This document shows positions 6,050 through 39,113 of a DNA stretch of 64,000 bases, piece by piece. Each line of letters opens with the position of its first letter. Position 1 is the first letter of the stretch. The notes under the pieces were generated by a model that was given only the letters and a program-made list of their open reading frames with translations, did not search any database and was not told the origin of the DNA. The position numbers were made by a program, and so were the translations under genes. Origin of the DNA: an uncultured Actinomycetes bacterium (GTDB taxonomy: Bacteria > Actinomycetota > UBA4738 > HRBIN12). The stretch is taken from NCBI GenBank assembly GCA_963722795.1, contig CAVROD010000004.1, positions 203,443 to 267,442 on the forward strand, in the 5' to 3' direction.

Positions 6050-6765
6050 ATGCTGGGGGACATGTGGGTGTTCCCGCTGGTGGCCGCCGCGGTGGCCGGC
6101 CCTGTTCGCCGGGCTCGTGGCCGCCGCAGTACCGAACCCGCCGGCGCCCGTACCAGCTCGCGTGGGCCGTCGCGATGGCGATGTACGCCGTTGCCTCGAT
6201 CGCGGTGGCGCTCGGCGTGGCCGGGGGCTGGACGCAGCGGTGAGTTCCAGGTCTATTGGGCGCTCGGCGCGGTGCTGAACGTGCCGTTCCTGGCCGGTGG
6301 CGAGCTGATGCTGCTCGTGCGCAACCGCACGGTGCACGCGGCGATCTGGATCGTGCTCGTGTTCCTCACGGCCTACACGCTCGCGGTGCTGCGAGGCGCC
6401 TCGCTCGACGTCGCAGCGCTCGCCGAGGAGCTGCCGTCGGGCAAGCACGTCTTCGGCGACGGGTCGGCAGCCCACCGGCTGCCACAGCTCATCTCGATCC
6501 CGTCGTACCTGGTGCTCGTGCTCGGCGCGCTCTGGTCGGCGTGGCGCATGCGCGGGCGGCGGCGACCTGCGCGACCGGTTCATCGGCACGCTGCTCGTCG
6601 CGCTCGGCGCGACCGTGATCGCCGGGTTCGGCTCGGCGTTCGCCGCCGCCGGCGGCGCTGGCCGCGTTCTCGCTGTCGCTCGTCGCCGGCATCGCCGTGA
6701 TGTTCGCGGGGTTCCTGCGGGCCGCCCGCCAGGCGCCGTCGCCCGCCCCGACGGTCGCCGCGTAA
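6050..6765 (+). CDS. polytopic membrane protein, hypothetical, frame-disrupted
   Basis: Hydrophobic segments are spread over three frames (MLGDMWVFPLVAAAVAG / ALFAGLVAAAV / AWAVAMAMYAVASIAVALGVAGG / FQVYWALGAVLNVPFLAGGELMLL...LVLVLGALWSAW / AAFSLSLVAGIAVMFAGFLRAARQ). TAA stop at 6763-6765. Confidence 0.4.
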
Positions 6766-6813
6766 TCGCGTGATCGCGTGACCGCGTGATCGCGCAGTCG
6801 CGCCGTCGCCCCG

Positions 6814-7523
6814 CTACGCCGCCTCGGCCTCGCTCGCCGACCACCACTCGGCGCTCGTCGGCCGGTCGGTCGGGGCGTCGACGGGCTCGATGGAGATCCA
6901 CAGGTCGTCGTAGCGCGTGGGGTCAACCGGGATGTCGAGGAAGACGTGCCCCTCCGCCGGCGTGAAGCTCGCCGACGAACGTGGGGTCACCGCTGGCCAC
7001 GAGCCACACCCGGTACACCGAGCCGGCGGGCGGCTCGGGCACCCCGTCGCCCATCACGTAGGTGTGCTCCTCGCCGGGGGCCGTGATCTCGTGCACGGGA
7101 CCGACGTCGATACGGCTCGCATCGGGGCGCGTCGCGAGCTGCGCGGCGTTGGCGAGGGCCTCGGCCCGCACGTCGGCATCGTTGGCGCGCATGCTCTGGC
7201 TGATCGTGGCCCCCGCGAGCCCCACGACGACCGCGATGCCGGCGGCCACCGCGAACACCTGCATCGGACGCCGGCGCGGCGCCTGCGGTTCGAGCTCGCG
7301 GTGCAGGCGGGGCAACAGCGTCTCGGGAGGCGCCAGCGGCTCGGCCCCCACGCCCAGATCGGCGGAGAGGCGCTGGAAGTCGTCGAGGGCCTCACGGCAG
7401 GCGCCGCAGCCGGGCACGTGTTCGGAGAGCAGCCGGTCGGCTTCCGCGGCGTCGGCCCCCGACACGCTGCGCAGCACGTAGCCGGCCAGCAGTTCGTCGA
7501 TCGCATCGTGGTCGTCGTTCACC
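6814..7523 (-). CDS. rskA: anti-sigma-K factor RskA-like (zinc-binding anti-sigma factor with TM and C-terminal domain), one frame switch near 6960
   Basis: GTG start overlaps the sigma-factor stop (GTGA). N-terminal motif HVPGCGACREAL (HxxxCxxC) is followed by TM segment VFAVAAGIAVVVGLAG. The C-terminal domain continues in a second frame (…GELH / TPAEGHVFLDIPVDPTRYDDLWISIEPVD…) to a TAG at 6814. Confidence 0.7.
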
Positions 7524-8126
7524 GGCGCTCCAAGTCGGTCGGGAGATCTTCGGTTTCGAGCTCGGTGCGGTCGAGCGCTCGGCGCAACTTGCGCATCGCC
7601 GCGAGGGTCCTCGTCTTCACGGTGCCGACCGGGATCGCGATCTCCTCGGCGATCTGCACCTGGGTCTTCCCGCCGTAATACGCCATCTCGAGCACCTGTC
7701 GTTGTTCGGGCGGAAGGGTGTCGAGCGCCGCCCGGACCTCGATGCGACGCTCGGCCAGGTCGGCCGCGTCGGTGACACCCTCCGCTGGGTCTTCGACGGC
7801 CACCGGCTCGAGGTTCGAGGCCCGCTCCTGCCGGGCTCTGATGCGCTCCTCGCGCCGGACGGTGTCGACGGCGCGATGGTGCACGAGCGAGAGGAAGAAC
7901 GTGCGGAAGGCGCCGCGAGCGGGGTCGAACGCTTCCGGGGCGCGCCACACGGCCAGGAACGCGTCATGCACGACGTCCTGGGCGAGCACCTGCTGGCCCG
8001 TGATGCGATATGCCAGGCCGTATGCCAACGCGGAGTACCTGCGGTACAGGTCATCGAAGGCGCCGCGATCGCCCGCCGACAGGCTGCGGTGCAACTCCAG
8101 GTCGTCGCGCTCGCCCTCGCGCATGC
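7519..8126 (-). CDS. sigK: ECF (sigma-70 family) RNA polymerase sigma factor, SigK-like
   Basis: Region-2 motifs (DDLYRRYSALAYGLAYRITGQQVLAQDVVHDAFLAVW) and a region-4 HTH (LPPEQRQVLEMAYYGGKTQVQIAEEIAIPVGTVKTRT). Start taken at MREGERDDLE (ATG ~8126). Co-transcribed with the anti-sigma gene. Confidence 0.85.
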
Positions 8127-8147
8127 GCCGTATCCTCCCAGACACCG

Positions 8148-8417
8148 ATGCGCCCCCCCGACCGAGCCGGCGACCCCGCCCCACAGCACGTGGTGTTGTA
8201 CACCCGCCCGGGGTGTCACCTCTGCGACGACGCCCGGGCGGTGCTGCGCCAAGTTCGCGCGAGCGTGCCGTTCGAGCTGCACGAGGTGGACATCGAGACC
8301 TCCGACACCCTGGTGGGCGAATACGGCCTGCGCATCCCGGTGGTCGTCATCGACGGCCGGGAAGCATTCGAATACACGGTCGATCCCGTCGAACTCGAGT
8401 CGACGCTTCGTCGATGA
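8148..8417 (+). CDS. glutaredoxin-family protein (mycoredoxin/NrdH-like, CxxC)
   Basis: VVLYTRPGCHLCDDARAVL redox motif and IPVVVIDGRE follow a thioredoxin-fold pattern. The gene is divergent from sigK. The N-terminal extension in ORF 8010..8417 is spurious; ATG at 8148 precedes a C7 homopolymer. Confidence 0.75.
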   Translation: MRPPDRAGDPAPQHVVLYTRPGCHLCDDARAVLRQVRASVPFELHEVDIETSDTLVGEYGLRIPVVVIDGREAFEYTVDPVELESTLRR

Positions 8418-8503
8418 ACTGCCGCTTGGCCCACCCCGCTTGTGAGTTTGTGAACGCTGCCATCACGGCGCTAGTCTGAAGCCATGCAGCGGAGCGCTTC
8501 CCC

Positions 8504-9202
8504 GTGGTGAGGGATCGGACGATCCCCGAGGCCACGGTGGGGCGGCTGCCTGTCTACCTGCGCGCACTCGTCGATCTCGCGGAAGCCGGCGCCGGCACGG
8601 TCTCGAGCGACGAGCTCGCCGAGGCGGCGGGCGTGAACTCCGCGAAGGTGCGCAAGGATCTCTCGCACCTCGGGTCCTACGGCACGCGGGGCGTCGGCTA
8701 CGACGTCGCCTACCTCATCCACCAGATCCGCCGCGAGCTGGGGCTCACCCAGCACTGGGCGATCGCGATCGTGGGCGTCGGCAACCTCGGCCAGGCCCTG
8801 GCGAACTACGGTGGGTTCGCCGAGCGCGGCTTCCGGGTCGCGGCCCTCGTCGACGCCGACACCGCACGGATGGGCGAGCGCATCGGCGACCTCGAGGTGC
8901 GCCACGTCGACGACCTGCCGGCGATCGTGTCGGAGCTCGACGTGGCCATCGGCGTGATCGCCACGCCAGCCGGGGCCGCGCAGGAGGTGGCGGATCGGCT
9001 CGTCGACGCCGGGGTGCGGTCGATCCTGAACTTCGCGCCGGCGATGATCGCGGTGCCCCACGGGGTGTCGGTGCGCAAGGTCGACCTAGCGGTGGAGCTC
9101 CAGATCCTGGCGTTCTACGAGCAACGGAAGGCGACGCTCGCCGACCTGAAGCGCCGGGGCCGGGCGGTCGCCGACCTGGGCCCGGCTACTTCGAGATCGT
9201 GA
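8504..9202 (+). CDS. rex: redox-sensing transcriptional repressor Rex
   Basis: N-terminal winged helix (RLPVYLRALVDLAEAG...VSSDELA) plus Rossmann NADH-binding motif IAIVGVGNLGQALANY. Length 232 aa. Confidence 0.9.
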   Translation: MVRDRTIPEATVGRLPVYLRALVDLAEAGAGTVSSDELAEAAGVNSAKVRKDLSHLGSYGTRGVGYDVAYLIHQIRRELGLTQHWAIAIVGVGNLGQALANYGGFAERGFRVAALVDADTARMGERIGDLEVRHVDDLPAIVSELDVAIGVIATPAGAAQEVADRLVDAGVRSILNFAPAMIAVPHGVSVRKVDLAVELQILAFYEQRKATLADLKRRGRAVADLGPATSRS

Positions 9203-9299
9203 CCCAGAGGGCGGCGAAGACCGCGAGGATCATGATGCCCATCAGGATGAACTGCACGCTTCCCTGTTCGAGGAAGGGGAGCTCGAGGTTGGCGATCAT
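9186..9299 (-). CDS. putative small membrane protein (37 aa), last gene of the qcr-like operon; overlaps the rex 3' end
   Basis: ATG at 9299, translating to MIANLELPFLEQGSVQFILMGIMILAVFAALWVTISK with a TAG stop. One TM helix. It lies 22 nt downstream of the preceding membrane-protein gene on the same strand. Confidence 0.35.
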   Translation of the reverse strand: MIANLELPFLEQGSVQFILMGIMILAVFAALWVTISK

Positions 9300-9320
9300 C
9301 GGTTCGTCCTCTCTCGCGGG

Positions 9321-10052
9321 CTAGGCCGGGCCGTACCAGGCGGGTGCGCCGCCCCCGGTCAGGAACTCCTTGCGCTTCTTCTCGGCCCGGTCCATCAGCG
9401 GCAGGAACACCGCGAACGCCACGATCGAGCCGGCCAGGAACATGTACGAGTAGCGGGGCACGCTGCCCCCGTCGTAGTACAGCGAGACGGTCCACAGCGG
9501 TCCGCCGCCCGTGAAGTGCGATTGCACGACGGCGAGCTTCGTGCCGTCGTCCTCGGCGAAGCGGATCGAGTCGATCGCGAACTGGCTGCCGAGCACCGCG
9601 GTGGGGTCGGTCTCGGCGAGCCCCAGCTCTTCGTTCGTCTGCTCGGCGAGGAAGGCCGTCACGGCGCCGCTCGCGCTCTGCACGTCGGCGTTCGCGGCCT
9701 CGGGCACCACCCACGGGTCTCCCGGCCAGGTCCCGAAGGCGGCGTACTCGGTGGAGGTCTCGTCGACCGCGGCCTCGAGCGCCACCCAGGCCGGCTCGGC
9801 TCCGCGCGGTCCGAGGTTGGTCGGCGTCTCGAGGCCCTGCGACCAGAAGCCGAACAGCCAGAGCGCGGACTGCAGGACCATCCAGCCCGAGAACGACACC
9901 GCGAGCACCAGGAACCCGAGCCACCGGCCGAAGATGGCCGTGAGCAGCAGGTACGTGCTGAAGATGAACAGCGTGAAGCCCATGATCGTGACGCCGGCGC
10001 CCTTCCACAGGGTGTCGCACTCGATCGCGAAGCCGAGGCAGCTGTGCTCCAT
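9321..10052 (-). CDS. hypothetical polytopic membrane protein co-operonic with the cytochrome c / Rieske / cytochrome b genes
   Basis: Intact 243-aa ORF with four hydrophobic helices (three N-terminal, one C-terminal) around a ~120-aa hydrophilic domain. Its ATG directly abuts the stop of the upstream cytochrome c gene. Confidence 0.6.
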   Translation of the reverse strand: MEHSCLGFAIECDTLWKGAGVTIMGFTLFIFSTYLLLTAIFGRWLGFLVLAVSFSGWMVLQSALWLFGFWSQGLETPTNLGPRGAEPAWVALEAAVDETSTEYAAFGTWPGDPWVVPEAANADVQSASGAVTAFLAEQTNEELGLAETDPTAVLGSQFAIDSIRFAEDDGTKLAVVQSHFTGGGPLWTVSLYYDGGSVPRYSYMFLAGSIVAFAVFLPLMDRAEKKRKEFLTGGGAPAWYGPA

Positions 10053-10781
10053 CTACGGATCCCTCGGGTTGAGGCCGGGTCCGCCGTTCTCGGGCAGGTT
10101 CTCTTCGAGCGCCCGGGCCGAGGCCTCCTCGTTCAGGCAGACGTTGTCCTCGAACGGCACGTTCTCCGAGCTCATCTCGACGAGGTAGACGACCAGGTCG
10201 TTGATCTGCTGGTCGTTCAGCGCGCCCTGATAGCGGATGCTCCACGACGGCATCGCGCCCCGGCCCTCCTCGAGTCACCTGGTAGATGTCGTCCTGGGAG
10301 AAGATCGCTGGGTGGCGGGGTGCCGAACGGCCCGCGCACAGAGTTCGTGAGGTCCGGCGGGTACGCGAACGCGTCTCCCGCCTGGATCACGCCACCGCGA
10401 AGCTCCGGTCCGTGGCAGCGGACGCAGCCGACGCCGAGCTGGTTCTCCTCGGAGAAGGGCTGCACGGCGAGCTCGCCGCGGTCGTAGGCGAGCGTGAGCA
10501 GCTCGTCCTCCTGACGCAGGTTCTCCGAGGGCTCGCGCAGCCAGTTGTAGGGGATGAAGACCACGAAGAAGGCGACGAGCACGCACGCCCCAGCCCTGCA
10601 GCTTCTGCAGCAGCGGGGTCTCGAGGGCGGCGTCGCTCGGGCCCGGTCGCATGCCACGCGGGATGTCGAGCGGCTGCTCCTGCTGGCGGCTGCGCAGGAA
10701 CAACGCGGCGCCGGCCGCGACCACGAAGATCGCGCCGAGCACGAGCAGGACGATGCCTGCGGTGTTCGTGGCGGCGAGCAT
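10053..10781 (-). CDS. membrane-anchored monohaem c-type cytochrome (electron acceptor of the Rieske/cyt b complex), ~3 frame switches
   Basis: Assembled across three frames: two N-terminal TM helices (IVLLVLGAIFVVAAGAALFL, VLVAFFVVFIPYNW), haem motif CVRCHGP, a Met-ligand region (GGPGRD.MPSW) and the class-I C-terminus QINDLVVYLVEM. Confidence 0.7.
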
Positions 10782-10799
10782 CTCCGTGGCCGTTCCTCT

Positions 10800-11520
10800 C
10801 TATCCGGTCGCCACGCAGAAGGGGCCCTGCGGTGGCTGGTCGATCGTGTCGGCGCCGCGCGGGGGCCCGAGGATCACCTCGGACGTGTCGACGACGACGT
10901 TGCCGTCGGTGATCTCGAGCTTGAACCGGTCCATGCCGCGCAGGCGCCGGGCCGAGCTTGTACTCCCCGGCGCCGTTGTACTTCGAGCCGTGGCACGGGC
11001 ACTCGAACCACTTCGACGACCCGCAGTACGGGCACCCGGCAGCCGAGGTGCACGCATCGCTGGTACAGGGGCATGATGCCCTCGGCCGCGACGCCCTCGG
11101 TCACGTAGTCGACGTCACCGCTCGGTGAGCCGTTGTACCCGACGACGTAGAAGCGGCCGGTGCCGTTGTAGGCCGCGCCCGCCGGACTCGTCGATCTCGG
11201 CCTTGATGTCGGCGACGTTGCCGGCGTCGACGAGCGAGCCGAACCCGCCCTTGAGGTTCGGCCACAGGAACGCGATCGTGGCGCCGCCGAACTGGGCGCC
11301 GAAGACGACAGCGACGTCAGCAGGGAGCGGCGGAAGAAGTCGCGCCGCGAGAGCGACTTGACCGGCTTGCCGGCGACCTCGATCTGCCCGTCGGCGGTCT
11401 CGCGCGGCGGCGCGATTGCGCGCGCACGAACGACAGGCCGAACACGATCGCGAAGATGTCGAGCACCACGAACGCGAGGATCGCGGCGACGAGCGGCGTG
11501 GAGACAGCGCGAGCGTGCTC
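10800..11520 (-). CDS. qcrA: Rieske [2Fe-2S] iron-sulfur subunit (QcrA/PetC-like), at least 4 frame switches
   Basis: Pieces in different frames: TM LVAAILAFVVLDIFAIVFGL; Tat-like SLSRRDFFRRSLLT; FGAQFGGATIAFLWPNLKGGFGSLVDAG; box I CVHLGC; box II CPCHGSKYN; C-terminus GMDRFKLEITDGNVVVDTSEVILGPPRG. TAG stop at 10800. Confidence 0.75.
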
Positions 11521-12360
11521 ACAGCTCGAAGAACACCCCCTGCGCCCACGGCCAGACCCAGTTGTAGCCGGGGCCGCGGAAGAACGAGCCGATGATCGTG
11601 AGGACGCCGCCGAACATGAACAGGATCGTGAACAGCGTGATCGCGATCTTGCGGTCGCCCGGCTTGTTGCTCGGGTTGCGGTCGACGTAGGGCACCGCCG
11701 CGAGCCCGACCAGGATGAACGTGGGGATCGTGATGCCGGCCACCATCGGGTGGAAGTAGCGCAGCAGCTCCTGCAGGCCGAGGAAGTACCACGGCGCCTT
11801 CGACGGGTTCGGCGTGAGGTTGGGGTTCGCGAGCTCGCGCAGCGGCGCGTTGATGAACGTGGAGAACAGCGTCAGGCCCGCGAGCAGGATGAACATCGCG
11901 ACGAACTCTTCGATCAGCAGGTGCGGCCAGACGTTCACGCGGTCGCCCTGCTCGCGCTCGACCCGCTGGATGCCCTCGGGCGGCACCAGCGCCAGCAGGC
12001 GGTGCTTGTCGTCGGCGCCCTTCTTCGGCGTCGGGCACGTTGCCCGTGGGCAGCGGGGCTTCGCGCATCGGGGTCGTGACCGACGCGGCCACGGCCACGG
12101 CGGCAGGTGCCGCGGCACCGGCGGCGGCGGCAGCGGGTGCGGCAGCGGCCGCGCGCGCCGGGCGCGGCCGCCGCGGCCGCGGCACCGGCGCCGGCGGCCT
12201 CGTGCTTCGCTGCCTCCTCGGGGTTGGCGGCGCGGAATGCGCGCACGGCCGGCGACCGAGCGCGACCCTCGGCCACGCGGCGGTCGGTGCCCTTGGCGAG
12301 CTCCGCCTCCAGCGTGGAGTCGAAGACCTCCTGGTCGAGCGGGGTGTCTTCCTTGGCCAT
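11519..12360 (-). CDS. cytochrome b6f-type subunit IV (PetD-like C-terminal half of cytochrome b), Ala-rich N-terminal extension, frame-disrupted
   Basis: Motifs [21 protein letters not shown] and [21 protein letters not shown] match subunit IV / cyt b C-terminal helices. The N-terminus [23 protein letters not shown] lies in another frame. Confidence 0.7.
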
Positions 12361-12377
12361 GTCTCTCCTTGGACTCC

Positions 12378-13150
12378 CTAGAGCGGTCCCGAGATGCCGC
12401 CGTCCTTGCGGATGCGCCAGAAGTGCACCGCGAGGAAGATCACCAGCACGAACGGCAGTGCGATCACATGCAGCGTGTACCAGCGGAGCAGGGTCTCGGG
12501 CCCGACCACGACGCCGCCGAGCAGCAGGAAGTTCGCCTGCTTCGCGATGAACGGCGAGTAGCCCGGCGAGCGACGTGCCCACGGTGACCGCCCAGATCGC
12601 GAGCTGGTCCCACGGCAGCAGGTAGCCGGTGAACGACAGGCCGAGCGTGAGGAACAGCAGGATCACGCCGACGACCCAGTTGAACTCGCGCGGCGGCTTG
12701 TAGGCGCCCGGTGTAGAACACGCGCGCCATGTGCAGCGTGACGCTGAAGACCATGAGGTGGGCGCCCCACCGGTGCAGGTTGCGCACCAGGTCGCCGAAG
12801 AACACCGACGTGCGGATGCTCTGCATGTCGGTGAAGGCCTGCGCGCCGCCGATGTCGGCCGTGGGCCGGTAGAAGAACATCAGGAAGATGCCGGTGATGG
12901 TGAGCAGGATGAACAGGAAGAACGACAGCCCGCCCAGGCAGAACGTGTAGGTCAGCTTCAGCCCGTGCCGCTTCACCTTCACCGGGTGCAGGTGGTAGAG
13001 CACGTTGTTCATCGTCGCGAGCGCGCGGTCGCGCGACGTGTCCTTGTAGCCCTTGCGGAAGATCGACCCCGGCCGGAAGATCGACTTCCAGACCTCGGTC
13101 TCCCTGATCCGGTCACCCAGGTCGCTCGGCGACGGAGGCTTCAGCTTCAC
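12378..13150 (-). CDS. qcrB: cytochrome b6-like (N-terminal cytochrome b, bis-haem), two single-base frame switches
   Basis: Conserved segments [86 protein letters not shown] and [21 protein letters not shown]. The protein stops after ~255 aa, so it is a split b6-type, not a full-length cyt b. Confidence 0.85.
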
Positions 13151-13174
13151 GTCTTCTCCCTCTCGCGTCGCGGC

Positions 13175-13580
13175 TCATCCGGCCTCGGCCTGCGAGGTCG
13201 GCACCTCGGCCATCGTGCGCGTGCCGCCCTTGGAACCCTCGGGCAGTCGCGCATAGTACAGGGTGTCGGTGGGGCAGCGGTCGACGCACACCGAGCATCG
13301 CGTGCAGGCGTTGTCGTCGACGACGAAGATCGGCGTTCGACGTTGTCGACCTCGTCGCCGACCGACGTCGATCGGCCGCGCCCTCGACGATGCCCGGCGA
13401 CATCATGTAGATGCAGTTCCAGGGGCAGACGTCCTCGCAGGCGCGGCACAGGATGCAGTTGTCGGGATCGAGCATCAGGTGCTTCGGCGACTTCACGCCC
13501 TGGGCGAGCCACGCCGGGTCGACGGCCTCCACGACGTAGTCCTCGTGGATGTCGACCTCGGTCTTCGTGTAGGCCATCGC
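13175..13580 (-). CDS. 2[4Fe-4S] ferredoxin-like protein co-operonic with cytochrome b6, one frame switch
   Basis: Starts MAYTKTEVDIHEDYVVEAV... First cluster motif CILCRACEDVCP, second CTRCSVCVDRCP after a frame switch near 13370. Its ATG is 10 nt downstream of the preceding gene's stop. Confidence 0.7.
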
Positions 13581-13590
13581 GCGCCCGATC

Positions 13591-14018
13591 CTACCGGTAT
13601 CCGCCGGTCGGACGGTTGTCGGATTGCCCGCGCAGCTTGCGGCGCCAGTTCTGCATGATCGCCCCGCCGACGAGCACGATGATGATCGGCCCGGTGCTGC
13701 AGGCCCATCGCGACCGCGTCGCGCACCTGCAGCAGCAGCTCGTCGTAGGCGGCCGGCTCGCCGCCCGGCAGCAACGTGGGCAGCTCTTCGAGCGCCGCTT
13801 CGATGTCGGTCGGGCCCTGCCAGCCGAACTTCTGCTCGCGTCAAGTAGAGCCAGAACGACGGGAGCACCGAGGTCGTGATCAGCAGGAAGAACACGAGCC
13901 CGAGCGAGAAGACGACCGCTGTGGTCCACGTCCACTCGAAGTCCTTGAGGAACGCCTCGACGCGTGCCCTTCGGGTCTGCGTGGCCGTGGCGGGCGTCGT
14001 GGTCTCGACCTGGCTCAT
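13591..14018 (-). CDS. hypothetical two-TM membrane protein, first gene of the qcr-like operon, two frame switches
   Basis: SD AGGAGCG then ATG at 14018. Starts MSQVETTTPATATQTRRARVEAFLKDFEWTWTTAVVFSLGLVFFLLITTSVLPSFWLYL... and ends in a second TM GPIIIVLVGGAIMQNWRRKLRG. Confidence 0.5.
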
Positions 14019-14126
14019 ACGCTCCTGTGTTCCTCGCGTGTCTCGTCGGGCGAGTCTGCCTGAGGCGGGGGGATTATAGACATGTGCCGCACGCGCTCGA
14101 CGACCGCCTTCCACGCTTCGCGATGC

Positions 14127-14144
14127 TCGTGAATCGTTTCACAA
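14127..14144. promoter_or_regulatory. Rex operator (ROP) candidate TCGTGAATCGTTTCACAA
   Basis: 17/18 match to the actinobacterial Rex consensus TTGTGAAnnnnTTCACAA. It sits in the divergent intergenic region between the qcr-like operon (start 14018, minus) and ccdA (14214, plus). Confidence 0.55.
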
Positions 14145-14213: not shown

Positions 14214-14957
14214 TTGATCGCCGACATCGTGCAGACAGGACTCGCCTCGTGGTGGGCGCCCGCGCTCGCGTTCGCCGCCGGGCTCGTGTCCTGTCTCAGC
14301 CCGTGCGTGTGGCCCGCTGCTGCCCGGGCTACGTCTCGTTCGTCACCGGCGAGCGCATCGCGAGCGGCGACGACGGCGAGCGCCCGGCCGCTCGCGCCGA
14401 TGCTGCTGTTCATCGCCGGGTTCACGATCGTGTTCGTGCTGCTCGGCGCGTTCGCCTCGACCTTCGTGCAGATCTTCCGTGGCATCGACCGGCCAGCGGG
14501 TCGGCGGCGCGATCGTGATCGCGTTCGGCGTGCTGATGATCGGCTACGCGCTCGGCCGTGGGTCGCTCGCGCTGTACGCCGAGCGCCGGCCGTTCCTCGC
14601 CCGGGTGCGGCCCGGGCACGGTCGGCGCCGTGCCGCTCGGCATGGCGTTCGCCGCCGGGTGGACGCCCTGCATCGGGCCGGTGCTCGGGTCGATCCTCGT
14701 GATCGCCGCGACGGGCAGCACCGCTCGCGCCGTGCTGCTGCTCGTGAGCTACTCCGCGGGCCTCGGGGTGCCGTTCCTGCTCGTGGGTCTCGGGGTCACG
14801 CGGTTCATGGGAGCCTTCGAGTGGGTGAAGCGCCGCTACACGGCGATCGCCGTCGTGCTCGGGCGCGCTGATGATCGCCGTCGGCGTGCTGCTCTTCACG
14901 GGCGAGTTCACCCGGCTCGTCGCCCCGCTCGCCGAGCGGTTCACCCTGGGTATCTGA
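14214..14957 (+). CDS. ccdA: cytochrome c-type biogenesis protein CcdA (DsbD-family thiol-disulfide transporter), ~3 frame switches
   Basis: LSPCV(LPLLPGY)VSFVTG motif and a second TPCIGPVLGSIL motif with multiple TM helices. At the first disruption the sequence GTGTGGCCCGCTGCTGCCCGGGC is explained by extra C/G bases in C/G runs. Confidence 0.75.
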
Positions 14958-14975
14958 GGGGCGCCGCTAGGATCG

Positions 14976-16624
14976 GTGCTGGCCCCATGTCGTCTCCCCA
15001 GCGCCTCTCGATCGCGCCAGTCGGTCGCCCTCGTGTGGCGGACCCTGCGCTCGATGCGCACGGCGCTGATCCTGCTGCTGCTCATCGCGCTCGCCTCGGT
15101 CGCCGGGTCGCTGCTGCCCGCAGTGGCCCGAACACGCCCGGACCGCGTGCTGCAGTACCAGGTCGACGCACCCGTTCTGGGGCACGTTCTTCGACCGCGC
15201 CGGACTGTTCGACGTCTTCGGGTCCTGGTGGTTCGTGCTGCTCGCGACGCTGCTGTTCGTCTCGCTCGTCGCCTGCCTCGTGCCGCGCACCCGCGCGCTC
15301 TGGCGGGCGTTGCGCACGCCGCCGCGTGCAGGCTCGCGAGATCGACGCCTTCCCGCGCTACGCCGAGGTCGCGCGTCGCCGCGGGCGCCCGAGGCGGCCA
15401 TCGAGGCGGCTCGCGACGGGTGCTGCGCCGTCGGCGGTTCCGGGTGGCGCGCGACCCGGCCGGCCCGCCCTCGCCGCCGAGAAGGGCGTGGCCCGCGAGG
15501 TCGGCAGCCTCGCGTTCCACTGGGCGTTCATCCTGCTGCTCGCCGGCGTCGTCTATGGCAAGGGCACCGGGTTCAGCGGGCTCGTCGCGGTGGTCGAGGG
15601 CCAGACCTGGGTCGACGCCGAGGCGAACTACGACGGCACACTCCGAGCGGGCCGGTTCTTCGACGACTTCACCGGGGTCGGGCTGCGCTTGCGTGACTTC
15701 GGCAGCGAATTCGCGCACACCGGGCAGCCGATGGACTTCGTCTCCGAGGTCGACCTGCTCGACGCCCGACGGCTCGTCGCTGCGACAGGAGTCATCAGGG
15801 TGAACCATCCGGCGAAGATCGACGGCATCTGGATCTATCAGTCGAGCTTCGGGTGGGCGCCGCTCATCGAGGTGACGCTCGACGGCGAGGTCGTCTCGTC
15901 GGGACCCGTGGTCATGGATCGTGACGCCGCGCCCGAGGGGGTCGTCGAGTTCGCGATGCCGTGGCGCGGCGTCGTGAAGCTGCCGGGGGCCGGCGACCAG
16001 GGCCTCGACCGCGCGATCGAGCTCGAGCTCTGGCCCGACAGCACGGCACTCGCGAACCTGGTGCAAGGTGGCGAACCGCAGGCCATGCTTCGCGAGTTCG
16101 ATCCGGTCATCCGCTTCACGGTCTGGGAAGGCGTGCTCGGCGACCTCTCCACGAACCGCCTCGACACGACGACCCTCGAGGACGTCTCGAGCGGCATCGT
16201 CGGCGCCGGGCGCACCGCCGATCTCGCCGACGGCGGCGCCCTGCCCGAGGGCGGCACGGGATCGGGCTCGACGATCTCGTTCCCCGAGCTGCGGCAGTAC
16301 TCGGTGTTCCAGGTCGCGCGCGACCCCGGGGTGCCCCTGGTGCTGGCCGCGGCTATCCTCATCCTCGCGGGCCTGCTGCCCGCGCTGTACAGCTCGCGGC
16401 GCAAGGTCTGGGTGCGCGCCGACCCGGACGGCGACGGGGCGGTGCTGCGTGTCGGCGGGCTCGCGATGCAGCGCAAGCCGCAGTTCGAAGAGGAGTTCGC
16501 TCGGCTCGTCGACGCGCTCGCGTCGGCGGCCGGCAGCGCCCCGGCGCCCGGCCCGCCGACCGGGGCCGGTGACGACCCAGGGGCACAGGAACCAGGAGCG
16601 CAGGAAAGGGTGCCGACGCCGTGA
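14976..16624 (+). CDS. resB: cytochrome c biogenesis protein ResB/Ccs1, ~3 frame switches in the N-terminal third
   Basis: N-terminal TM RTALILLLLIALASVAGSLLP, FWGTFFDRAGLFDVFGSWWFVLL, and a large periplasmic domain (…GIWIYQSSFGWAPLIEVTLDGE…) with a C-terminal TM LVLAAAILILAGLL. Confidence 0.75.
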
Positions 16625-17593
16625 CCGACCTGCAGTGGGCCCGCGTCTCGAACGACGCGTTCAACGTCGCGCTGTTCGCCTACCTCGCCTCGATGCTCGG
16701 CTACTTCGTGTTCCTCGCCTTCAAGCGCGAAGGCGTCTGGCAGGTGTCGAGGGCGGTGGCGGTCGTGGGCGTGGCCGCGAACCTCGTGTCGATCGTGGCG
16801 CGCGGGCTCTCGGCCGACCGCGTGCCGTGGGGAAACATGTACGAGTACTCCTCGCTGCTGGCGATGCTCGTCGTGGTCGGCGCGCTCGTCGTGGTCGAGG
16901 GCGTGTACAAGGTGCGCTCGCTCACCGGCTTCGCCCTGATGTTCAGCGTGCTCACGATGGCGGTGGCCGTGTCGTTCCTCTACGTCGGCCCCGGACCGCT
17001 CGTGCCGGCGCTCAACTCGTACTGGATCAAGATCCACGTGCAGGCGGCGATCTGGGGTTCCTCGCTGTTCGCGCTCGGTGGCATCGCGACGATCGCCTAC
17101 CTCGTGGTGGACCGGTCGGAACAGCGACGGCTCGCGAGGCTCGGCTCGCACACGCCGCCGCCGATCATGGGCGGCTCGATCGACCTCGAGGCCGGCGCCC
17201 CTCGCCCCGACGCACCCGACGACCTGGTGCCCGACTCGGCCGAGGACGTCGCCACCCGGCCCTCGCTCGCGCCGCCTCGTGCCGTCGGCCGCCGGGCTCG
17301 ACCGACTCGCGTACCGCATCATCGCGCTCGCGTTCCCGATCTGGACGTTCGCGGTGATCGCCGGCGCGATCTGGGCGCAGGAAGCCTGGGGGCGCTACTG
17401 GGGCTGGGACCCGAAGGAGACGTGGTCGTTCATCACGTGGGTCATCTTCGCCGGGTACCTGCACGCGCGCGCCACGAGCGGGTGGAAGGGTCGCCGCGCC
17501 GCCGTCATCGCGCTCGTCGGCTTCGTCTCGCTGTTGATCACGTACTACGCCGTGAACCTCTGGATCGTGGGTCTGCACAGCTATGCGAAGTGA
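16621..17593 (+). CDS. resC: cytochrome c biogenesis protein CcsA/ResC (haem exporter), one frame switch near 17280
   Basis: WWD-domain C-terminus WAQEAWGRYWGWDPKETWSFITWVIFAGYLHAR. Start overlaps the resB stop (GTGA). Confidence 0.8.
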
Positions 17594-17706
17594 TGCGGCG
17601 ACGACCTCTGGATGCACGAGGCGTCGGTGATACAGTGCGCGCGTTCCGGCCGGGTCGGGGGCAGGCCGCGGACAGCCGAGCCGTCAGGTAAGGAGCGAGA
17701 GCGATC

Positions 17707-18804
17707 GTGCGGAAGAAGTCGCTGTGGACCCTCGGCCTGATCGCCGTGGGACTGCTGCTCGCGGCATGTTCTCCCGACGCCAGCCAGGACACCCTGCAGC
17801 CCGTCGGCGACGTCGCGAAGCAGCAGAAGGCCCTCTTCGTGCCGGTGTTCTGGGTGGCCGTCGGGGTCTTCGTGATCGTGCAGGGCGGCATCCTGTACAT
17901 CGCCATCCGCTACCGGCACCGCAAGGGCCGCGACCGCATGCCCAGGCAGACCCACGGCAACACCCGGCTCGAGATCGGCTGGACGATCGCCGCCGGCGGT
18001 GGTGCTCGCCGTCGTCATGGTGCCGACGGTGTCGCTGCTCTGGGACCTCGCCCGCCCGCCGGCCGACGGCGCCCTCAACATCACGGTCGAGGGCTACCAG
18101 TGGTGGTGGGGCTTCGCCTATCCCGACGACGACATGGTGACCGACTGGGACACGCCCCATCACGATCGCCGACACGATGGTGGTGCCCACCGGGCGCGAC
18201 GTCTACCTCTCGCTGGAGTCCCGTGGCGGCGGGGCGCAGGACGCGAACGGCGATCCGGACTTCCAGGTGATCCACTCGTTCTGGGTGCCCGAGCTGTTCG
18301 GCAAGCAGGACGTGATGCCGGGCCGGACGAACCACGATCCTGTTCAGCGTCGACGAGCCTGGCACCTACACCGGGCAGTGCGCGGAGTTCTGCGGGCTGC
18401 AGCACGGGCTGATGAAGCTCGAGGTCGTCGCGCTCGCGCCGACGGACTGGGAGGCCTGGGTCGCGAACCAGCAGACGCTGCCGCCGAGCCCGACCGACCC
18501 GCTGGCGAAGCAAGGGGAGGAGCTGTTCCTGAACCCGCTGAGCGACGGTCGCGGCCAGTGCACGGCGTGCCACGCCGTCGGCGACTCGCCGGGCGGCGCG
18601 GCCGCGCCCGAACCTGACGCACTTCGCCGACCCCGACCCACACGTGCTTCGCGGGGTGCAACTGGTCCACCGAGGACCGTGAGGCGCTCGCGGCCTGGCT
18701 CGAGAACCCCGACGCGGTCGAAGCTCGGCGCGAAGATGCCCGACTACGGCCTCACGCCCGAGGAGATCGATGCCCTCGTCGCCTACCTGTACAGCCTGAC
18801 GTGA
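17707..18804 (+). CDS. ctaC: cytochrome c oxidase subunit II with C-terminal cytochrome c domain (caa3-type), ~4 frame switches
   Basis: Lipoprotein-like signal LAACS, CuA motif HSFWVPELFGKQDVMPGRTN...CAEFCGLQHGLM, then a C-terminal CTACH haem-c motif and LTPEEIDALVAYLYSL. Confidence 0.85.
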
Positions 18805-18823
18805 TGGAGGCGATCACCGACCC

Positions 18824-20704
18824 ATGGCGAGCGTGAGCGTTCCGGCGAGCGGCCGGGGTCTGCTGCGGCGGCCCACGGCGATCACCGGCTTCTGGAGCTG
18901 GTTCACCACGGTGGACCACAAGAAGATCGGCATCATGTACGGCGTCACCGCCTTCGTGTTCTTCATCGTCGGGCGGTCTCGAGGCGCTGCTGATCCGGGC
19001 GCAGCTCGCGCAGCCCGACGGCACCCTGCTGAACGCCGACCAGTACAACCAGATCTTCACGATGCACGGCATCACGATGATCTTCCTGTTCGTGATGCCG
19101 ATGTCGGCGGCGTTCTTCAACTACATGATCCCGCTGATGATCGGGGCGCGCGACGTGGCGTTCCCGCGGCTCAACGCCTACAGCTTCTGGGTCTTCCTGC
19201 TTGGCGGTCTGTTCCTGTACTCGAGCTTCGTTCCTGGGCGGCGCGCCCAACGGCGGCTGGTTCGGCTACGCGCCGAACTCCACGACCGACCCGTCGATCG
19301 GCATGACCTTCTACGCGATCGGACTGCTGATCACGGGCATCGCCTCGACCGTCGGCGCGGTGAACCTGGCGGTCACGGTCGTGAACATGCGCGCGCCGGG
19401 CATGACGTTGTTCCGCATGCCGCCGTTCGTCTGGATGGGGCTCGTGGTGCAGTTCCTGCTGGTGTTCTCGCTGCCGATCATCACGGTGGCCCTGTTCCAG
19501 CTGCTGTTCGACCGGCGATGGGACACGGCGTTCTTCGATCCGACCCGTGGCGGGGAGCCGATCCTGTGGCAGCACCTGTTCTGGCTCTTCGGCCACCCCG
19601 AGGTCTACATCCTGATCCTGCCGGCCTTCGGCATCATCAGCGAGGTCCTGCCGGTCTTCAGCCGAAAGCCCCTGTTCGGCTACCAGTTCGTGGTCTTCTC
19701 GGGCATCGCGATCGGCTTCATCGGGTTCGGCGTGTGGGCCCACCACATGTTCGCCGCCGGACTGGGGCCGGTCGCCAACACCGCGTTCGGCATCTCGACC
19801 GCGATCATCGCGATCCCCACGGGCGTGAAGATCTTCAACTGGATGGGCACGATGTACGGAGGCGACATCCGGTTCGCGACGCCGATGCTCTTCTCGGTCG
19901 GCGCCGTCGCGATGTTCGTGATCGGTGGACTCTCGGGGGTCACGCACGCGATCGTGCCGAGCGACTACCAGCAGACCGACACCTACTACATCGTCGCGCA
20001 CTTCCATTACGTGATCTTCGGCGGTGCCGTCTTCGGCATCTTCGCCGGGCTGTTCTACTGGTGGCCGAAGGTGTTCGGGCGCAGCTTGGGCGAGGCGTCG
20101 GGCAAGGTGCAGTTCTGGCTCTTGCTCGTCGGGTTCAACCTCGCGTTCGGGCCGATGCACATCCTCGGCCTGCAGGGCATGATCCGACGCGAATACACCT
20201 ACCCCGAGTCGCTCGGCCTCACCTTCTGGAACCAGATCGCGACGGTCGGCGCGTTCCTGATCGCCGTCTCGGTGTTGATGTTCATCGTGAACGCCGTGCG
20301 CACGCAGCTCCGACAGCCCGCGGCGAGGTCGTCGAGGACCCATGGGACGCGCGCACCCTGGAGTGGATGACGTACGAGCCCGCCGCCGGTGCACAACTTC
20401 GACGAGATCCCGACCGTGCACTCCCTCGACGAGTTCTGGCACCGCAAGTACGTGGAGGACGAGCGCACCGGCACGCTCGTACCGGCGCAGGCGGGGGCCT
20501 CCGACCAGGACCCCGGTCATGCGTCCGGGCACGGCTCGATCCATCTGCCGAGCCCGTCGTACTGGCCGCTCGTGTCGGGCCTCGGCCTGCCGATCATCGG
20601 GCTACGGCGTGCTCTACTCCTGGTGGCTGATCGGGCTCGGCGCGCTCGTCGTCGCTGATCGGGTTCTACGGCTGGGCCCTCGAGCCATCGGTCGCGGAGG
20701 ACTA
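18824..20704 (+). CDS. ctaD: cytochrome c oxidase subunit I with C-terminal extension, ~4 frame switches
   Basis: Conserved segments GFWSWFTTVDHKKIGIMYG, MIFLFVMPMSAAFFNYMIPLMIGARDVAFPRLN, WQHLFWLFGHPEVYILILPAFGIISEV, GVWAHHMFAAG and YIVAHFHYVIFGG. Ends ...FYGWALEPSVAED. Confidence 0.85.
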
Positions 20705-20706
20705 GT

Positions 20707-21348
20707 CATGGCCGACCTCGCGATCACCCCCGGGCACGGCGCCGTCGAAGCGCACGACGAGCACGCGACCACCACGGGGCTGCCGAACACGAAGCTCGCG
20801 ATGTGGATGTTCCTCGCGTCGGAATGCATGTTGTTCGGCGCGCTGATCAGCACCTACGTGCTGTACCGCGGCGCCAGCCAGACGGGCCCGTACCCCGACG
20901 ACGTCTTCGACATCCCCTACACGTCGGTGTCGTCGTTCGTGCTGCTCGCGTCGTCGCTCACGATGGTGCTCGCGCTCGCTGCGGCGCAGAAGCGCGACGT
21001 CGCTGCGCATGCGCCTGTGGCTGCTCACCACCGCGCTGCTCGGCCTCACGTTCGTCGGCGGCCAGGTCTACGAGTTCACGACCTTCTACGACGAGGGCCT
21101 GTCGATCTCGACGAACCTGTTCGGCACGACGTTCTACGTGCTCACCGGCTTCCACGGGGTGCACGTCACCGTCGGCATCCTGATGCTGCTCTCGCTCGTC
21201 GGCTTCTCGACCGCCGACCGGCTGCCCGACGACGCCGCGTTCCCGGTCGAGATGGTCGGGCTGTACTGGCACTTCGTCGACATCGTGTGGATCGTCGATC
21301 TTCACGGTCGTGTACCTGATCCCGACCCCTTCCCCGGCCCCGGTCTAG
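20707..21348 (+). CDS. ctaE: cytochrome c oxidase subunit III, two frame switches
   Basis: Starts HTTGLPNTKLAMWMFLASECMLFGALISTYVLYRG, continues TTFYVLTGFHGVHVTVGILML and ends LYWHFVDIVWIVIFTVVYLIP. Confidence 0.8.
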
Positions 21349-27860: not shown

Positions 27861-27878
27861 TTGTGAAACTTTTCACAA
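27861..27878. promoter_or_regulatory. Rex operator TTGTGAAACTTTTCACAA (perfect 18-bp palindrome)
   Basis: Exact match to the consensus TTGTGAA-N4-TTCACAA, 32 nt upstream of the geranylgeranyl reductase start that leads into nuoA. Confidence 0.7.
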
Positions 27879-27909: not shown

Positions 27910-29160
27910 GTGATGGCGCAACCGCTCGAGACCGACGTGCTCGTGGTCGGCGGGGGCCCCGGCGGGGCGGCCGCGGCCTACTACCTGGCACGGCAGGGGC
28001 TCGACGTCACGGTCGTCGACCGGTCGTCGTTCCCGAGGGAGAAGGTCTGCGGCGACGGCCTCACGCCGCGCAGCGTGGCGGCGCTGTTGCGCATGGGCAT
28101 CGACACCGACGACCCAGGCTTCGAGCGCGTGCAGGGCCTGCGGGTCTACTCGAGGGGAGCCACGATCGAGCTTCCTTGGCCGGAGCTTTCGAGCTGGCCG
28201 GGGTACGGGCTCGTGATGCCGCGGGCGCGGTTCGACCACCTGCTGATCCAGCGCGCCGAGAAGGCCGGCGCCCGGGTGCAGGAGCGAACCGAGGCGGTCT
28301 CGCCGACGTTCGACGGGGGGTGGGTCACGGGCGCCACCCTGCGCGATGCCGACGACAAGGACGCCGAGCCCACCGAGATCAAGGCGCGCTTCACGATCGC
28401 GGCCGACGGCGCCGCGAGCCGCTTCGCGAAGCCGGCGGGGGTGCGTCGCGACGATTCCCGGCCGCTCGGCATCGCGGCCCGCCGCTACTACCGCACGTCC
28501 TACCACCCCGGACCCTGGTTCGAATCGTGGCTCGACCTGTGGGAGGGCGACCTGCTGCTGCCCGGGTACGGCTGGTTGTTCCCGGTCGCCGGCGGGCAGA
28601 TCAACCTGGGCGCCGGCCTGCTCAACACGTTCAAGGACTTCAAGCAGATCTCGGCCCAGCGGCTGTTCGATGCCTTCTCGACGATGTTGCCGCCCGAGTG
28701 GGAGATCGCCGAGGAGACCGCCGAGGGGCGGGTGCTGTCAGGTCCGCTGCCGATGAGCCTGAATCGCGTGCCCCAGGTCGTGCCGGGCATGCTGCTGATC
28801 GGTGACGCCGCCGGCGCCGTGAACCCGTTCAACGGCGAGGGCATCGCGTACGCGATGGAGACCGGCGAGGTCGCCGCCGATCTCGTGCACGAGGCGCTGG
28901 TGCAGGACCGGCCGGGCATCGCGATGATGTACCCCACCGTGCTGCGCGAGCGCTACGGCGACTACTTCACGATCGGCCGCGGCTTCGCGAAGATCATCGG
29001 GCGTCCGGCGATCATGAGCCGCGCCACCCGGTACCTGTTGCCGAATCGGCGGGTCATGGGGTTCGCGATGCGCGTGATGGCCAACCTCACCGACGGGCCC
29101 GACGGCGACCGCCAGGACCGCCTCTTCCACCTGCTGCAACGGATCGCGAGGGTGGCGTGA
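27910..29160 (+). CDS. geranylgeranyl reductase family FAD-dependent oxidoreductase (MenJ-like menaquinone isoprenyl reductase)
   Basis: FAD motif VLVVGGGPGGAAAAYYLARQGLDVTVVDR, CGDGLTP, and C-terminal GDAAGAVNPFNGEGIAYAM. 416 aa, intact. Confidence 0.85.
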   Translation: MMAQPLETDVLVVGGGPGGAAAAYYLARQGLDVTVVDRSSFPREKVCGDGLTPRSVAALLRMGIDTDDPGFERVQGLRVYSRGATIELPWPELSSWPGYGLVMPRARFDHLLIQRAEKAGARVQERTEAVSPTFDGGWVTGATLRDADDKDAEPTEIKARFTIAADGAASRFAKPAGVRRDDSRPLGIAARRYYRTSYHPGPWFESWLDLWEGDLLLPGYGWLFPVAGGQINLGAGLLNTFKDFKQISAQRLFDAFSTMLPPEWEIAEETAEGRVLSGPLPMSLNRVPQVVPGMLLIGDAAGAVNPFNGEGIAYAMETGEVAADLVHEALVQDRPGIAMMYPTVLRERYGDYFTIGRGFAKIIGRPAIMSRATRYLLPNRRVMGFAMRVMANLTDGPDGDRQDRLFHLLQRIARVA

Positions 29161-37606: not shown

Positions 37607-38181
37607 CCGAAGAGACGAGACCCCAGCCGACCGAGCCCGACGCCGATGGCGACGCCGGCGCCGACGCGGAGATCCGCGAGCCCGTGCACGAGCCGCGGCA
37701 GGGAGAGCAGGGGGGGTGGGACGGTGCGGTCGCGATCGCCAAGGGCATGGCGACGGTCTTCAAGCAGACCTTCCGGCCCGACAACACCGAGCGCTATCCG
37801 ACGGAGATCGCGCCGATCCCCGAACGCTCGCACATCGGCCGCCATCGCCTGAACCGACACGACGACGGCCTCGAGAAGTGCATCGGGTGCGAGCTGTGCG
37901 CCTTCGCCTGCCCGGCCGACGCCATCTGGGTGGAGGGTGCCGACAACGACCCCGAGGCCCCCGTGAGCCCCGGGGAGCGCTACGCGAAGGACTACCAGAT
38001 CAACTACCTGCGCTGCATCATGTGCGGCCTGTGCGTCGAGGCGTGCCCCACCCGCGCGTTGACCCTCACCGACTACTTCGAGCTCGCCTTCACGAGCCGC
38101 GAGGACGCCATCTGGACCAAGGAGCAGCTGCTGCAGAAGCCGCCGGAGCTCGGCACCGACCCGGTGGACCGGGAGGGCTAG
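37603..38181 (+). CDS. nuoI: NADH-quinone oxidoreductase subunit I
   Basis: Two 4Fe-4S motifs [12 protein letters not shown] and [12 protein letters not shown]. Confidence 0.9.
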
Positions 38182-38187
38182 GGCGCC

Positions 38188-38811: not shown

Positions 38812-39113
38812 GGACCCCGATCGCCTACTTCCTGCTGTTGTCGGCCGTGTTGTTCGCGCTCGGCTCCGCCTCGGTGCTGCTGCGCCGCAACGCGCTGCGC
38901 ATCTTCATGGGGGTCGAGCTGCAGCTCAACGCCGTGAACCTCACGCTCGTGGCCTTCTCGCGCATGCACATGCAGCTCGATGGACAGATCCTGGCGTTCT
39001 TCTCGATGGTCGTGGCCGCGGCTGAGGTGGTGGTCGGGCTCGCCATCATCGTCGCGGTGTTCCGGCGCACGGCTACGACCGACGTCGACCGAGCGAGCGT
39101 GCTGCGCGGATGA
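38808..39113 (+). CDS. nuoK: NADH-quinone oxidoreductase subunit K
   Basis: Contains [26 protein letters not shown]...[17 protein letters not shown]. Confidence 0.9.

Follow-up and report, generated by a model that had tools for sequence, protein, structure and literature searches.

Does a ferredoxin gene that lies inside an operon for a Rieske/cytochrome b complex encode a subunit of that complex, and what could such a subunit do? The question is raised by a stretch of 64,000 nucleotides (nt) from an uncultured Actinomycetes bacterium (contig CAVROD010000004.1 of assembly GCA_963722795.1, positions 203,443 to 267,442; G+C content, ∼70%), which we refer to as the window and number from its first letter. 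An earlier note, made from these letters alone, had read eight head-to-tail genes on the minus strand as such an operon, with a split cytochrome b, a monohaem cytochrome c, and an extra 2[4Fe-4S] ferredoxin. Our analysis supports this reading: the genes are what they were taken for, cytochrome b is truly split, its partner cytochrome c is monohaem, and the operon includes a 2[4Fe-4S] ferredoxin that is predicted to be cytoplasmic. It is fairly likely, in our judgment, that the operon encodes a menaquinol:cytochrome c reductase of the b6c type that is controlled by Rex and carries the ferredoxin as a subunit on its cytoplasmic side.

Gene content of the operon

Six-frame translation and tblastn searches of the window with the proteins of a related contig (L001) located all eight genes at 9186-14018, in the same order as in relatives. 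They are designated g1 to g8 here.

13591..14018, minus strand: g1, membrane protein of ∼141 amino acids (aa) with two predicted transmembrane (TM) helices, spread over three frames in the window
13175..13577, minus strand: g2, 2[4Fe-4S] ferredoxin of ∼132 aa, spread over about three frames in the window
12378..13150, minus strand: g3, four-TM subunit of the cytochrome b6 type (256 aa, starting at GTG), broken by two frameshifts
11519..12360, minus strand: g4, subunit IV homologue of ∼280 aa with a three-TM core and the Qo motif APWY
10800..11510, minus strand: g5, Rieske [2Fe-2S] protein of ∼235-240 aa, several frameshifts, start coordinate approximate
10053..10781, minus strand: g6, class I cytochrome c, monohaem and anchored in the membrane, broken by several frameshifts
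9321..10052, minus strand: g7, conserved protein of 243 aa with unknown function, intact open reading frame (ORF)
9186..9299, minus strand: g8, single-TM peptide of 37 aa, intact ORF

Clean reference contigs were obtained by searching with a hand-joined ferredoxin sequence. The long contigs L001 and L002 show the arrangement intact, with g1 (141-145 aa), the ferredoxin (131-133 aa), cytochrome b6 (249-256 aa), subunit IV (276-282 aa), the Rieske protein (239-244 aa), cytochrome c (211-237 aa), g7 (244-250 aa), and g8 (36-37 aa) in this order. Pfam and NCBIfam matches in the operon comprise Fer4 (twice), Cytochrome_B, Cytochrom_B_C, Rieske, and Cytochrom_C.

Frameshifts in the window

About 30 single-base G/C insertions or deletions (indels) are scattered across the operon DNA of the window, where g1 to g6 are each split over two to four reading frames and only g7 and g8 are intact ORFs. 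With six of the eight genes out of frame as the window is given, the operon could be taken for a decaying pseudogene cluster in which the frameshifts are real and nothing functional is encoded. Contig L093, which has 97.2% DNA identity to window positions 6296-13045 and encodes an identical g7, argues against this: its genes for cytochrome b6 (256 aa), subunit IV (283 aa), and the Rieske protein (235 aa) are intact, and the window differs from it by one-base G/C insertions or deletions exactly at the frame-switch sites (for example, at 12706, 12561, 12152, 12032, 11509, 11418, and 11405). Further indels of the window lie at 10583, 14483-14485, 17256, 18157, and 21001. Each segment of the split genes retains ∼90% amino acid identity to intact relatives and has no in-frame stops (identities to the L001 proteins were mostly 75-100% in the tblastn search over 14018-9186), and the operon genes are intact in more than 80 related loci. 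Frameshifts also interrupt CcdA, ResB, CcsB, COX1, COX2, and COX3 elsewhere in the window, so that essential genes (COX1-3, ResB, and CcsB) are affected alike, and many related metagenome-assembled genomes (MAGs) in our set are long-read assemblies with the same artefact.

Since the 97.2%-identical contig and the related loci are intact and the same breaks run through other genes of the window, we regard the frameshifts as assembly errors and not as specific decay of the operon. The operon is to be read as intact, the pseudogene reading is essentially excluded, and the window is probably an unpolished long-read assembly, of which any ORF-based reading requires frame correction. Apparent fusions of g1 with the ferredoxin or of the ferredoxin with cytochrome b6 (P0245, P0246, P0258, P0302, and others) are frameshift read-through from error-prone assemblies and were discarded as Rosetta-stone evidence; P0245 is the window's own garbled ORF at 13113-14114, and P0295 and P0321 are likewise read-through entries in public protein collections.

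A split cytochrome b of the b6 type

In the window, cytochrome b6 ends in ...GISGPL and a TAG codon at 12380-12378, followed by 17 nt that contain AAGGAG and by the ATG of subunit IV at 12360. Cytochrome b6 is 242-269 aa long in all related loci, and b6 and subunit IV remain separate genes in every intact relative. The stop codon, the ribosome-binding site (RBS), and the new ATG in the window, together with the length of b6 in every related locus, therefore make the split genuine; the single ORF that frame correction might have yielded, had the apparent stop been an error, does not appear.

The two proteins match Pfam Cytochrome_B and Cytochrom_B_C, respectively. Among solved structures, the cytochrome b6 of the b6f complex is the best match of b6 (163 bits), ahead of proteobacterial cytochrome b (∼108 bits) and actinobacterial QcrB (∼85 bits). 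In the alignment with 1q90_B, four haem histidines (HRWGAH...LH and LH...VH) match the b6 ligands for haems bL and bH, the haem-ci cysteine (Cys35; TFCLGG in the window) is aligned with FYCIGG, and the alignment continues to the shared C-terminal GISGPL. The CxGG context reads T[FYL]CLGG in all loci where it is readable, and the cysteine is predicted to be kept for the covalent attachment of haem ci.

The Qo motif of subunit IV sets the pair apart: APWY is invariant in the window and in all loci where it can be read, instead of the PEWY or PDWY of b6f and b6c complexes. The best NCBIfam model for b6 is Geobacter ExtP, which is passed only narrowly (291.1 versus a cut-off of 290), while subunit IV fails the ExtQ model (54.6 versus 150) and the ext operon context is also absent. 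The models for actinobacterial QcrB (NF050120, 108.8 versus a cut-off of 500) and QcrA (NF050121, 21.3 versus 275) are far from being reached. By its Qo motif, subunit IV can be placed provisionally in the uncharacterised APWY clade, to which the best NCBIfam model of b6 also belongs.

Both proteins carry N-terminal extensions. The segment of b6 before helix A is almost invariant across all lineages in the alignment, and subunit IV begins with a conserved, charged module of ∼45 aa without a Pfam match, which looks like an arm tethered to the membrane core through a variable linker rich in Ala and Gly. In b6f structures, both of these N-termini are located next to haem cn at the n side (PMC5600118).

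The ferredoxin as a conserved dicluster module

The ferredoxin scores above the cut-offs of Fer4 and Fer4_7. It has two CxxCxxCxxxCP motifs, whose cysteines (C41, C44, C47, and C51; C90, C93, C96, and C100) are invariant in 30 sequences, as is a fifth cysteine (CPWxC). The clusters are separated by an insert of ∼38 residues and flanked by extensions of ∼35 residues at the N-terminus and ∼25 residues at the C-terminus. Because the ferredoxin sequences contain no signal peptide, Tat (twin-arginine translocation) motif, or hydrophobic segment, the protein should be cytoplasmic. It belongs to no curated family; the NuoI model TIGR01971 gives 39.4 against a cut-off of 113, and the true nuoI is located apart from the operon, at ∼37.3-38.2 kb.

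Within the window lineage, the ferredoxin is the second most conserved protein of the operon. Median identities to L001 are 89% for b6, 80% for the ferredoxin, 74% for subunit IV, 65% for g8, 62% for the Rieske protein, 55% for cytochrome c, 54% for g7, and 52% for g1. The coding regions of the ferredoxin and b6 overlap by 4 nt in nine loci. The spacer of 10 nt that had been claimed for the window has to be corrected to 24 nt with a GGAG-rich RBS, and relatives range from the 4-nt overlap to ∼145 nt.

An all-against-all search of representatives identified remote homologues of the ferredoxin as the C-terminal domains of proteins of 550-700 aa with the architecture Fer4_20, Pyr_redox_2, and dicluster module; proteins of this kind are GltD-like NAD(P)H oxidoreductases. 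In locus L096, the gene for one such protein, P0332, immediately precedes those for a Rieske protein, a long cytochrome b, and a multihaem cytochrome c, as has been described for the complexes of planctomycetes and anammox bacteria (PMC5600118; PMC12954380). The ferredoxin and the C-terminal domain of P0332 share 38% identity over the whole dicluster module with a gap of only two residues, and the alignment includes the fifth cysteine (CP[WY]xCI) and the long inter-cluster insert. The window ferredoxin consists of the dicluster module alone, without the Fer4_20 and Pyr_redox_2 domains. These comparisons lend moderate support to the idea that the actinobacterial ferredoxin may represent, as a protein of its own, the module that in planctomycete/anammox-type enzymes contacts cytochrome b.

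Distribution and conserved gene order

A sequence search with the ferredoxin returned ∼1000 homologues, and all of the 120 matches listed were at least 79% identical and came from uncultured Actinomycetota. This close family and the conserved synteny show that the gene is real and not an artefact of the opposite strand. In a scan with one genome per species, 593 stretches contained a relative of the ferredoxin, and 80 loci were retained for synteny. The order ferredoxin, b6, subunit IV, Rieske protein, and cytochrome c is kept in every retained locus that is long enough to show it; the ferredoxin operon is thus not a rarity of the window genome. The retained loci come from MAGs of uncultured Actinomycetota or "Actinomycetes" and from Nitriliruptoria (Euzebya, Nitriliruptoraceae, Egibacteraceae, and Egicoccus), with a few from MAGs labelled Frankiaceae or Mycobacteriales. 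Ferredoxins of only 38-42% identity (L003, L089, and L007) occur in the same arrangement, in two cases with rex downstream. A second large ferredoxin subfamily (2117 matches) belongs to the Acidimicrobiia, where the same operon lies beside nuo (L091, with a ferredoxin likewise in the range of 38-42% identity).

Two further loci stood out. In L088 (672-2784), a divergent ferredoxin (P0288) is followed by an ORF of 511 aa without a Pfam match, and no b6 is recognisable there. L057 (CAYFXO010000169.1, 2 kb) is a g1/ferredoxin/b6 fragment in a MAG labelled as a Methanomassiliicoccales archaeon, which is probably a binning error.

The conserved position also bears on the view that the ferredoxin is a co-transcribed soluble carrier (for example, for 2-oxoacid:ferredoxin oxidoreductases or P450s) next to an ordinary b6c enzyme. 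Small ferredoxins are often general carriers, this one has no membrane segment, and in one Acidimicrobiia MAG (L090, 9001-9829) a member of the family stands alone, away from cytochrome b genes. We consider such a carrier unlikely, since the g1/ferredoxin/b6 position is fixed across three deep lineages, the ferredoxin is better conserved than the Rieske protein and overlaps the b6 coding region in nine loci, and the homologous module is fused into an oxidoreductase of a Rieske/cytochrome b operon. A small ORF (VWDYPRPP...) comes after the L090 gene, which could be either a paralogue or a gene that has moved.

The small membrane proteins g1, g7, and g8

The ferredoxin gene is always directly preceded by a gene for a g1-like small membrane protein, both in the window lineage and in Nitriliruptoria-like and Acidimicrobiia-type loci. 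In the window, g1 carries the motif ...VLPSFWLY..AEQ... and a basic C-terminal tail (...RPTGGYR); across lineages, the g1-like ORFs share (I/V)PSxWxYxx(D/E)Q and a basic tail that ends in ...GGYR/K or, in Acidimicrobiia, in ...GRPLVK. In the profile and structure searches, the ferredoxin was identified by its two Fer4 matches; g1, g7, and g8 had no Pfam or NCBIfam match, and g7 has no solved relative.

For g7, 616 homologues were found, all of them hypothetical proteins without Pfam domains. Two cysteines ahead of the first TM helix (Cys5 and Cys12, CxxxxxxC) and the C-terminus ...WYGPA are invariant. Three TM helices are predicted for g7, not the four that had been assigned to it, and its AlphaFold model (predicted local distance difference test score [pLDDT], 82.5) consists of two N-terminal TM helices, an ectodomain of beta-sheet and helix, and a C-terminal TM helix. 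Sequence comparison of g7 with PDB chains gave no match, and Foldseek matches had E values of at least 0.04 and TM-scores of at most 0.25. The single-TM peptide g8 was detected in 28 loci of the window lineage. Probably, both g7 and g8 are supernumerary subunits in the membrane and resemble in this the small Pet subunits of the b6f complex.

The Rieske protein and cytochrome c

The Rieske protein contains the cluster boxes CVHLGC...CPCHGS and the Tat motif SRRDFFRR; Pfam Rieske and NCBIfam models of the PetC type are its best matches, yet it remains below their cut-offs. Both the Rieske protein and cytochrome c have an extra N-terminal TM helix that had been missed before. A hydrophobic helix N-terminal to the Tat motif, present in the window (10800-11510) and in L001 (10039-10758), makes the Rieske protein a predicted Tat substrate with two TM helices, which recalls the polytopic QcrA of other Actinobacteria. 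Cytochrome c has N-terminal membrane helices, a ...GAMPSW... motif, and, consistent with its description as monohaem, one CxxCH motif (CVRCH). It matches Cytochrom_C and Cytochrome_CBB3 and not cytochrome f (PetA). All loci of the window lineage encode a monohaem form, and most Nitriliruptoria-like loci encode a dihaem one.

Probable Rex control and the genomic neighbourhood

Two features connect the operon with the redox-sensing repressor Rex.

14127..14144, no strand assigned: Rex-operator-like palindrome TTGTGAAACGATTCACGA in the divergent promoter region of g1 and ccdA, found by motif search
8504..9202, plus strand: rex, redox-sensing repressor gene, with matches to Put_DNA-bind_N and CoA_binding

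The actinobacterial Rex operator consensus, which we take to be TTGTGAA-N4-TTCACAA, was used as the reference. The window contains three Rex-like sites with N4 spacing. The site TTGTGAAACGATTCACGA at 14127-14144 has one mismatch to the consensus (0 matches are expected by chance in 64 kb), and a TATAAT box lies at ∼14073-14078. An equivalent site is present upstream of g1 in 49 of the 81 loci, 450-600 nt upstream of the ferredoxin start, and almost no other sites occur there. Given an operator in the promoter that is conserved in 49 of 81 loci, the operon is predicted to be, very probably, Rex controlled, which fits a core respiratory enzyme. The rex gene itself is convergent with g8 and overlaps its end by 17 nt, a position that is conserved in relatives.

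A perfect Rex operator, TTGTGAAACTTTTCACAA, lies at 27861-27878, 32 nt upstream of an ORF (27910-29160) for a flavin adenine dinucleotide (FAD)-dependent oxidoreductase with a FAD_binding_3 match and a weak geranylgeranyl-reductase match, which precedes the nuo region; the site points to a second Rex target in the window. The third site (38294-38311) has two mismatches, falls within the nuoJ coding sequence, and is unlikely to act as an operator.

Divergent from the b6c operon are genes for System II cytochrome c biogenesis (ccdA, resB, and ccsB; 14214-17590, plus strand), followed by a caa3-type oxidase (17626-21339, plus strand) that consists of COX2 with a fused cytochrome c domain, COX1, and COX3. 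The opposite flank contains, besides rex, a glutaredoxin-like gene and a sigma/anti-sigma pair of the extracytoplasmic function (ECF) type. The ccdA-resB-ccsB genes, the caa3 genes, and the rex-side neighbours recur in relatives; the distant relative L003 has System I (ccmABCEFH) in place of ccdA-resB-ccsB. Farther away lies a nuo operon (36473-42500) with nuoH (36473-37606), nuoI (∼37300-38180), nuoJ (38188-38811), nuoL (39110-40990), and then nuoM. A single tRNA gene (58486-58567, plus strand) is the sole Rfam match in the window.

The neighbourhood could also be read differently, with the ferredoxin, possibly together with g1 and g7, as a maturation factor that supplies reducing power for haem ci attachment or helps to assemble the complex. 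The operon adjoins cytochrome c biogenesis genes, b6 retains the haem-ci cysteine, g7 has two invariant cysteines, and we know of no CCB haem-ci attachment factors outside cyanobacteria and chloroplasts. Nevertheless, the homologous module in P0332 belongs to a redox enzyme, assembly factors are seldom the second most conserved protein of an operon, and in Bacillus haem ci is formed although the qcr operon has no such ferredoxin. A role in maturation thus appears quite improbable.

Proposed mechanism and significance

Compared with a role for the ferredoxin as a subunit, the carrier, maturation, and pseudogene explanations are all less likely. We propose that the complex III of the organism, its quinol:cytochrome c oxidoreductase, is encoded here and that it belongs to the b6c type, unlike the QcrCAB that is usual in actinobacteria. 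Judging from the genomic context, the quinol would be menaquinol, and cytochrome c would pass electrons to the neighbouring caa3 oxidase; the flanking rex gene and the operator suggest that expression would be under the control of the NADH-sensing repressor Rex. The 2[4Fe-4S] ferredoxin would be a peripheral subunit on the n (cytoplasmic) side, as suggested by synteny, conservation, and homology, and might be kept in place by g1 together with the conserved extensions at the N-termini of b6 and subunit IV. In this position, it could connect the low-potential chain, at its haem bH/ci-Qi end, with the cytoplasm and would either feed low-potential electrons into the quinone-reduction site or drain the low-potential branch of the Q cycle.

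Several points weigh against this proposal. The membership of the ferredoxin, g1, g7, and g8 in the complex would rest on gene order, conservation, and one domain homology. One member of the ferredoxin family stands alone (L090), and another GltD-like protein that ends in the same module has no cytochrome b gene beside it. The AlphaFold2 model of the ferredoxin, built from a 30-sequence alignment, had a pLDDT of 48 and was unusable. As a subunit, the ferredoxin might serve as an electron input, as an electron output, or in a purely structural role. We lean slightly toward input over output, and this direction of flow is a guess, as the potentials of the clusters cannot be read from the sequence.

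A bolder form of the proposal, which we put forward tentatively and hold to be possible rather than probable, is a ferredoxin-wired b6-type enzyme in which the bound 2[4Fe-4S] subunit exchanges electrons with haem ci/bH. Such an enzyme would be a bifurcating menaquinol:cytochrome c/ferredoxin enzyme or a built-in ferredoxin:quinone reductase, and the g1-ferredoxin pair would be an ancestral n-side port shared with anammox-type complexes. If true, this would provide a tractable bacterial model for the ferredoxin-to-haem-ci route that has long been proposed in b6f cyclic electron flow. Questions that would become testable are the role of haem ci, the direct ferredoxin input to b6f-type complexes (a question that is decades old), and the NAD(P)H-producing Rieske/cytochrome b complexes of anammox bacteria. 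The operon occurs in abundant soil, freshwater, and marine Actinomycetota, and two of the carrier classes, Acidimicrobiia (Ilumatobacter) and Nitriliruptoria (Euzebya and Nitriliruptor), have cultured, aerobic, genome-sequenced members that make the complex accessible for purification. Several large actinobacterial lineages seem to rely on it as their main complex III, which would then not be the QcrCAB assumed from Mycobacterium and Corynebacterium, which bears on the reading of metagenomes and on the evolution of bc complexes.

Comparison with known systems

With the b6f complex of cyanobacteria and chloroplasts, the predicted complex shares the split into b6 and subunit IV, the four histidines, CxGG, GISGPL, and the Rieske protein, and the single-TM peptide g8 recalls PetG/L/M/N. 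It differs in having a class I monohaem cytochrome c instead of cytochrome f, APWY instead of PEWY, N-terminal extensions of b6 and subunit IV, and a ferredoxin gene within the operon, and in its apparently respiratory setting beside a caa3 oxidase. For b6f, an n-side interaction with ferredoxin or FNR is a long-standing proposal. Electron transfer from ferredoxin to haem cn has also been proposed for this complex (PMC5600118; bioRxiv 10.1101/2020.08.22.262592).

Closer in physiology is the b6c complex QcrABC of Bacillus and Geobacillus, which is likewise from Gram-positive bacteria and respiratory, with a split cytochrome b, the haem-ci cysteine, a caa3 partner, and likely menaquinol as the substrate. 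To our knowledge, the Bacillus qcr operon contains no ferredoxin, g1, g7, or g8 genes. Moreover, Bacillus subunit IV is fused to a cytochrome c domain (QcrC), and its Qo motif is PDWY (PMC4122944).

The APWY clade, which corresponds roughly to subfamily G of Dibrova et al. and includes Geobacter ExtP/ExtQ, shares the invariant APWY with the complex described here, and ExtP is the best model for b6. The haem-ci motif is different, T[FYL]CLGG in the window type versus the WCMGG typical of the clade (PMC4122944), and the context is aerobic respiration, unlike the ext selenite/tellurite cluster of Geobacter. The clade includes some Actinobacteria, for example, Ilumatobacter, and no member has been characterised (Kao & Hunte 2014, PMC4122944). 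A split cytochrome b was reported earlier in the deep-branching Actinobacteria Rubrobacter, Conexibacter, Patulibacter, and Ilumatobacter (PMC4122944). Full-text literature searches turned up no account of g1 or this ferredoxin, nor of such an operon from Acidimicrobiia or Nitriliruptoria. While the split is thus already known, the combination of the g1-ferredoxin pair and g7/g8 with a haem-ci-type APWY complex appears to be undescribed.

The Rieske/cytochrome b complexes of anammox bacteria and planctomycetes resemble the window operon in that a gene for a cytoplasmic iron-sulfur (FeS) protein is part of the operon, with a homologous dicluster module (P0332 in L096). The window encodes only this module (130 aa), without a flavin/NAD(P) domain and without multihaem cytochromes; its cytochrome b is split, and the host is probably an aerobic actinobacterium. 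Genes or subunits for FeS/NAD(P) oxidoreductases have been noted near the short cytochrome b of subfamily G and in planctomycetes by Dibrova et al. (PMC5600118), who also argued that bc complexes derive from membrane-anchored dehydrogenases (PMC5600118).

QcrCAB of Mycobacterium and Corynebacterium, finally, comes from the same phylum, has the same presumed role of a menaquinol:cytochrome c reductase that feeds an aa3-type oxidase, and includes a Rieske protein with extra N-terminal membrane helices before the Tat motif. In contrast, QcrB is one long polypeptide without the haem-ci cysteine and QcrC is dihaem, whereas the cytochrome b of the window is split and its cytochrome c has one CxxCH.

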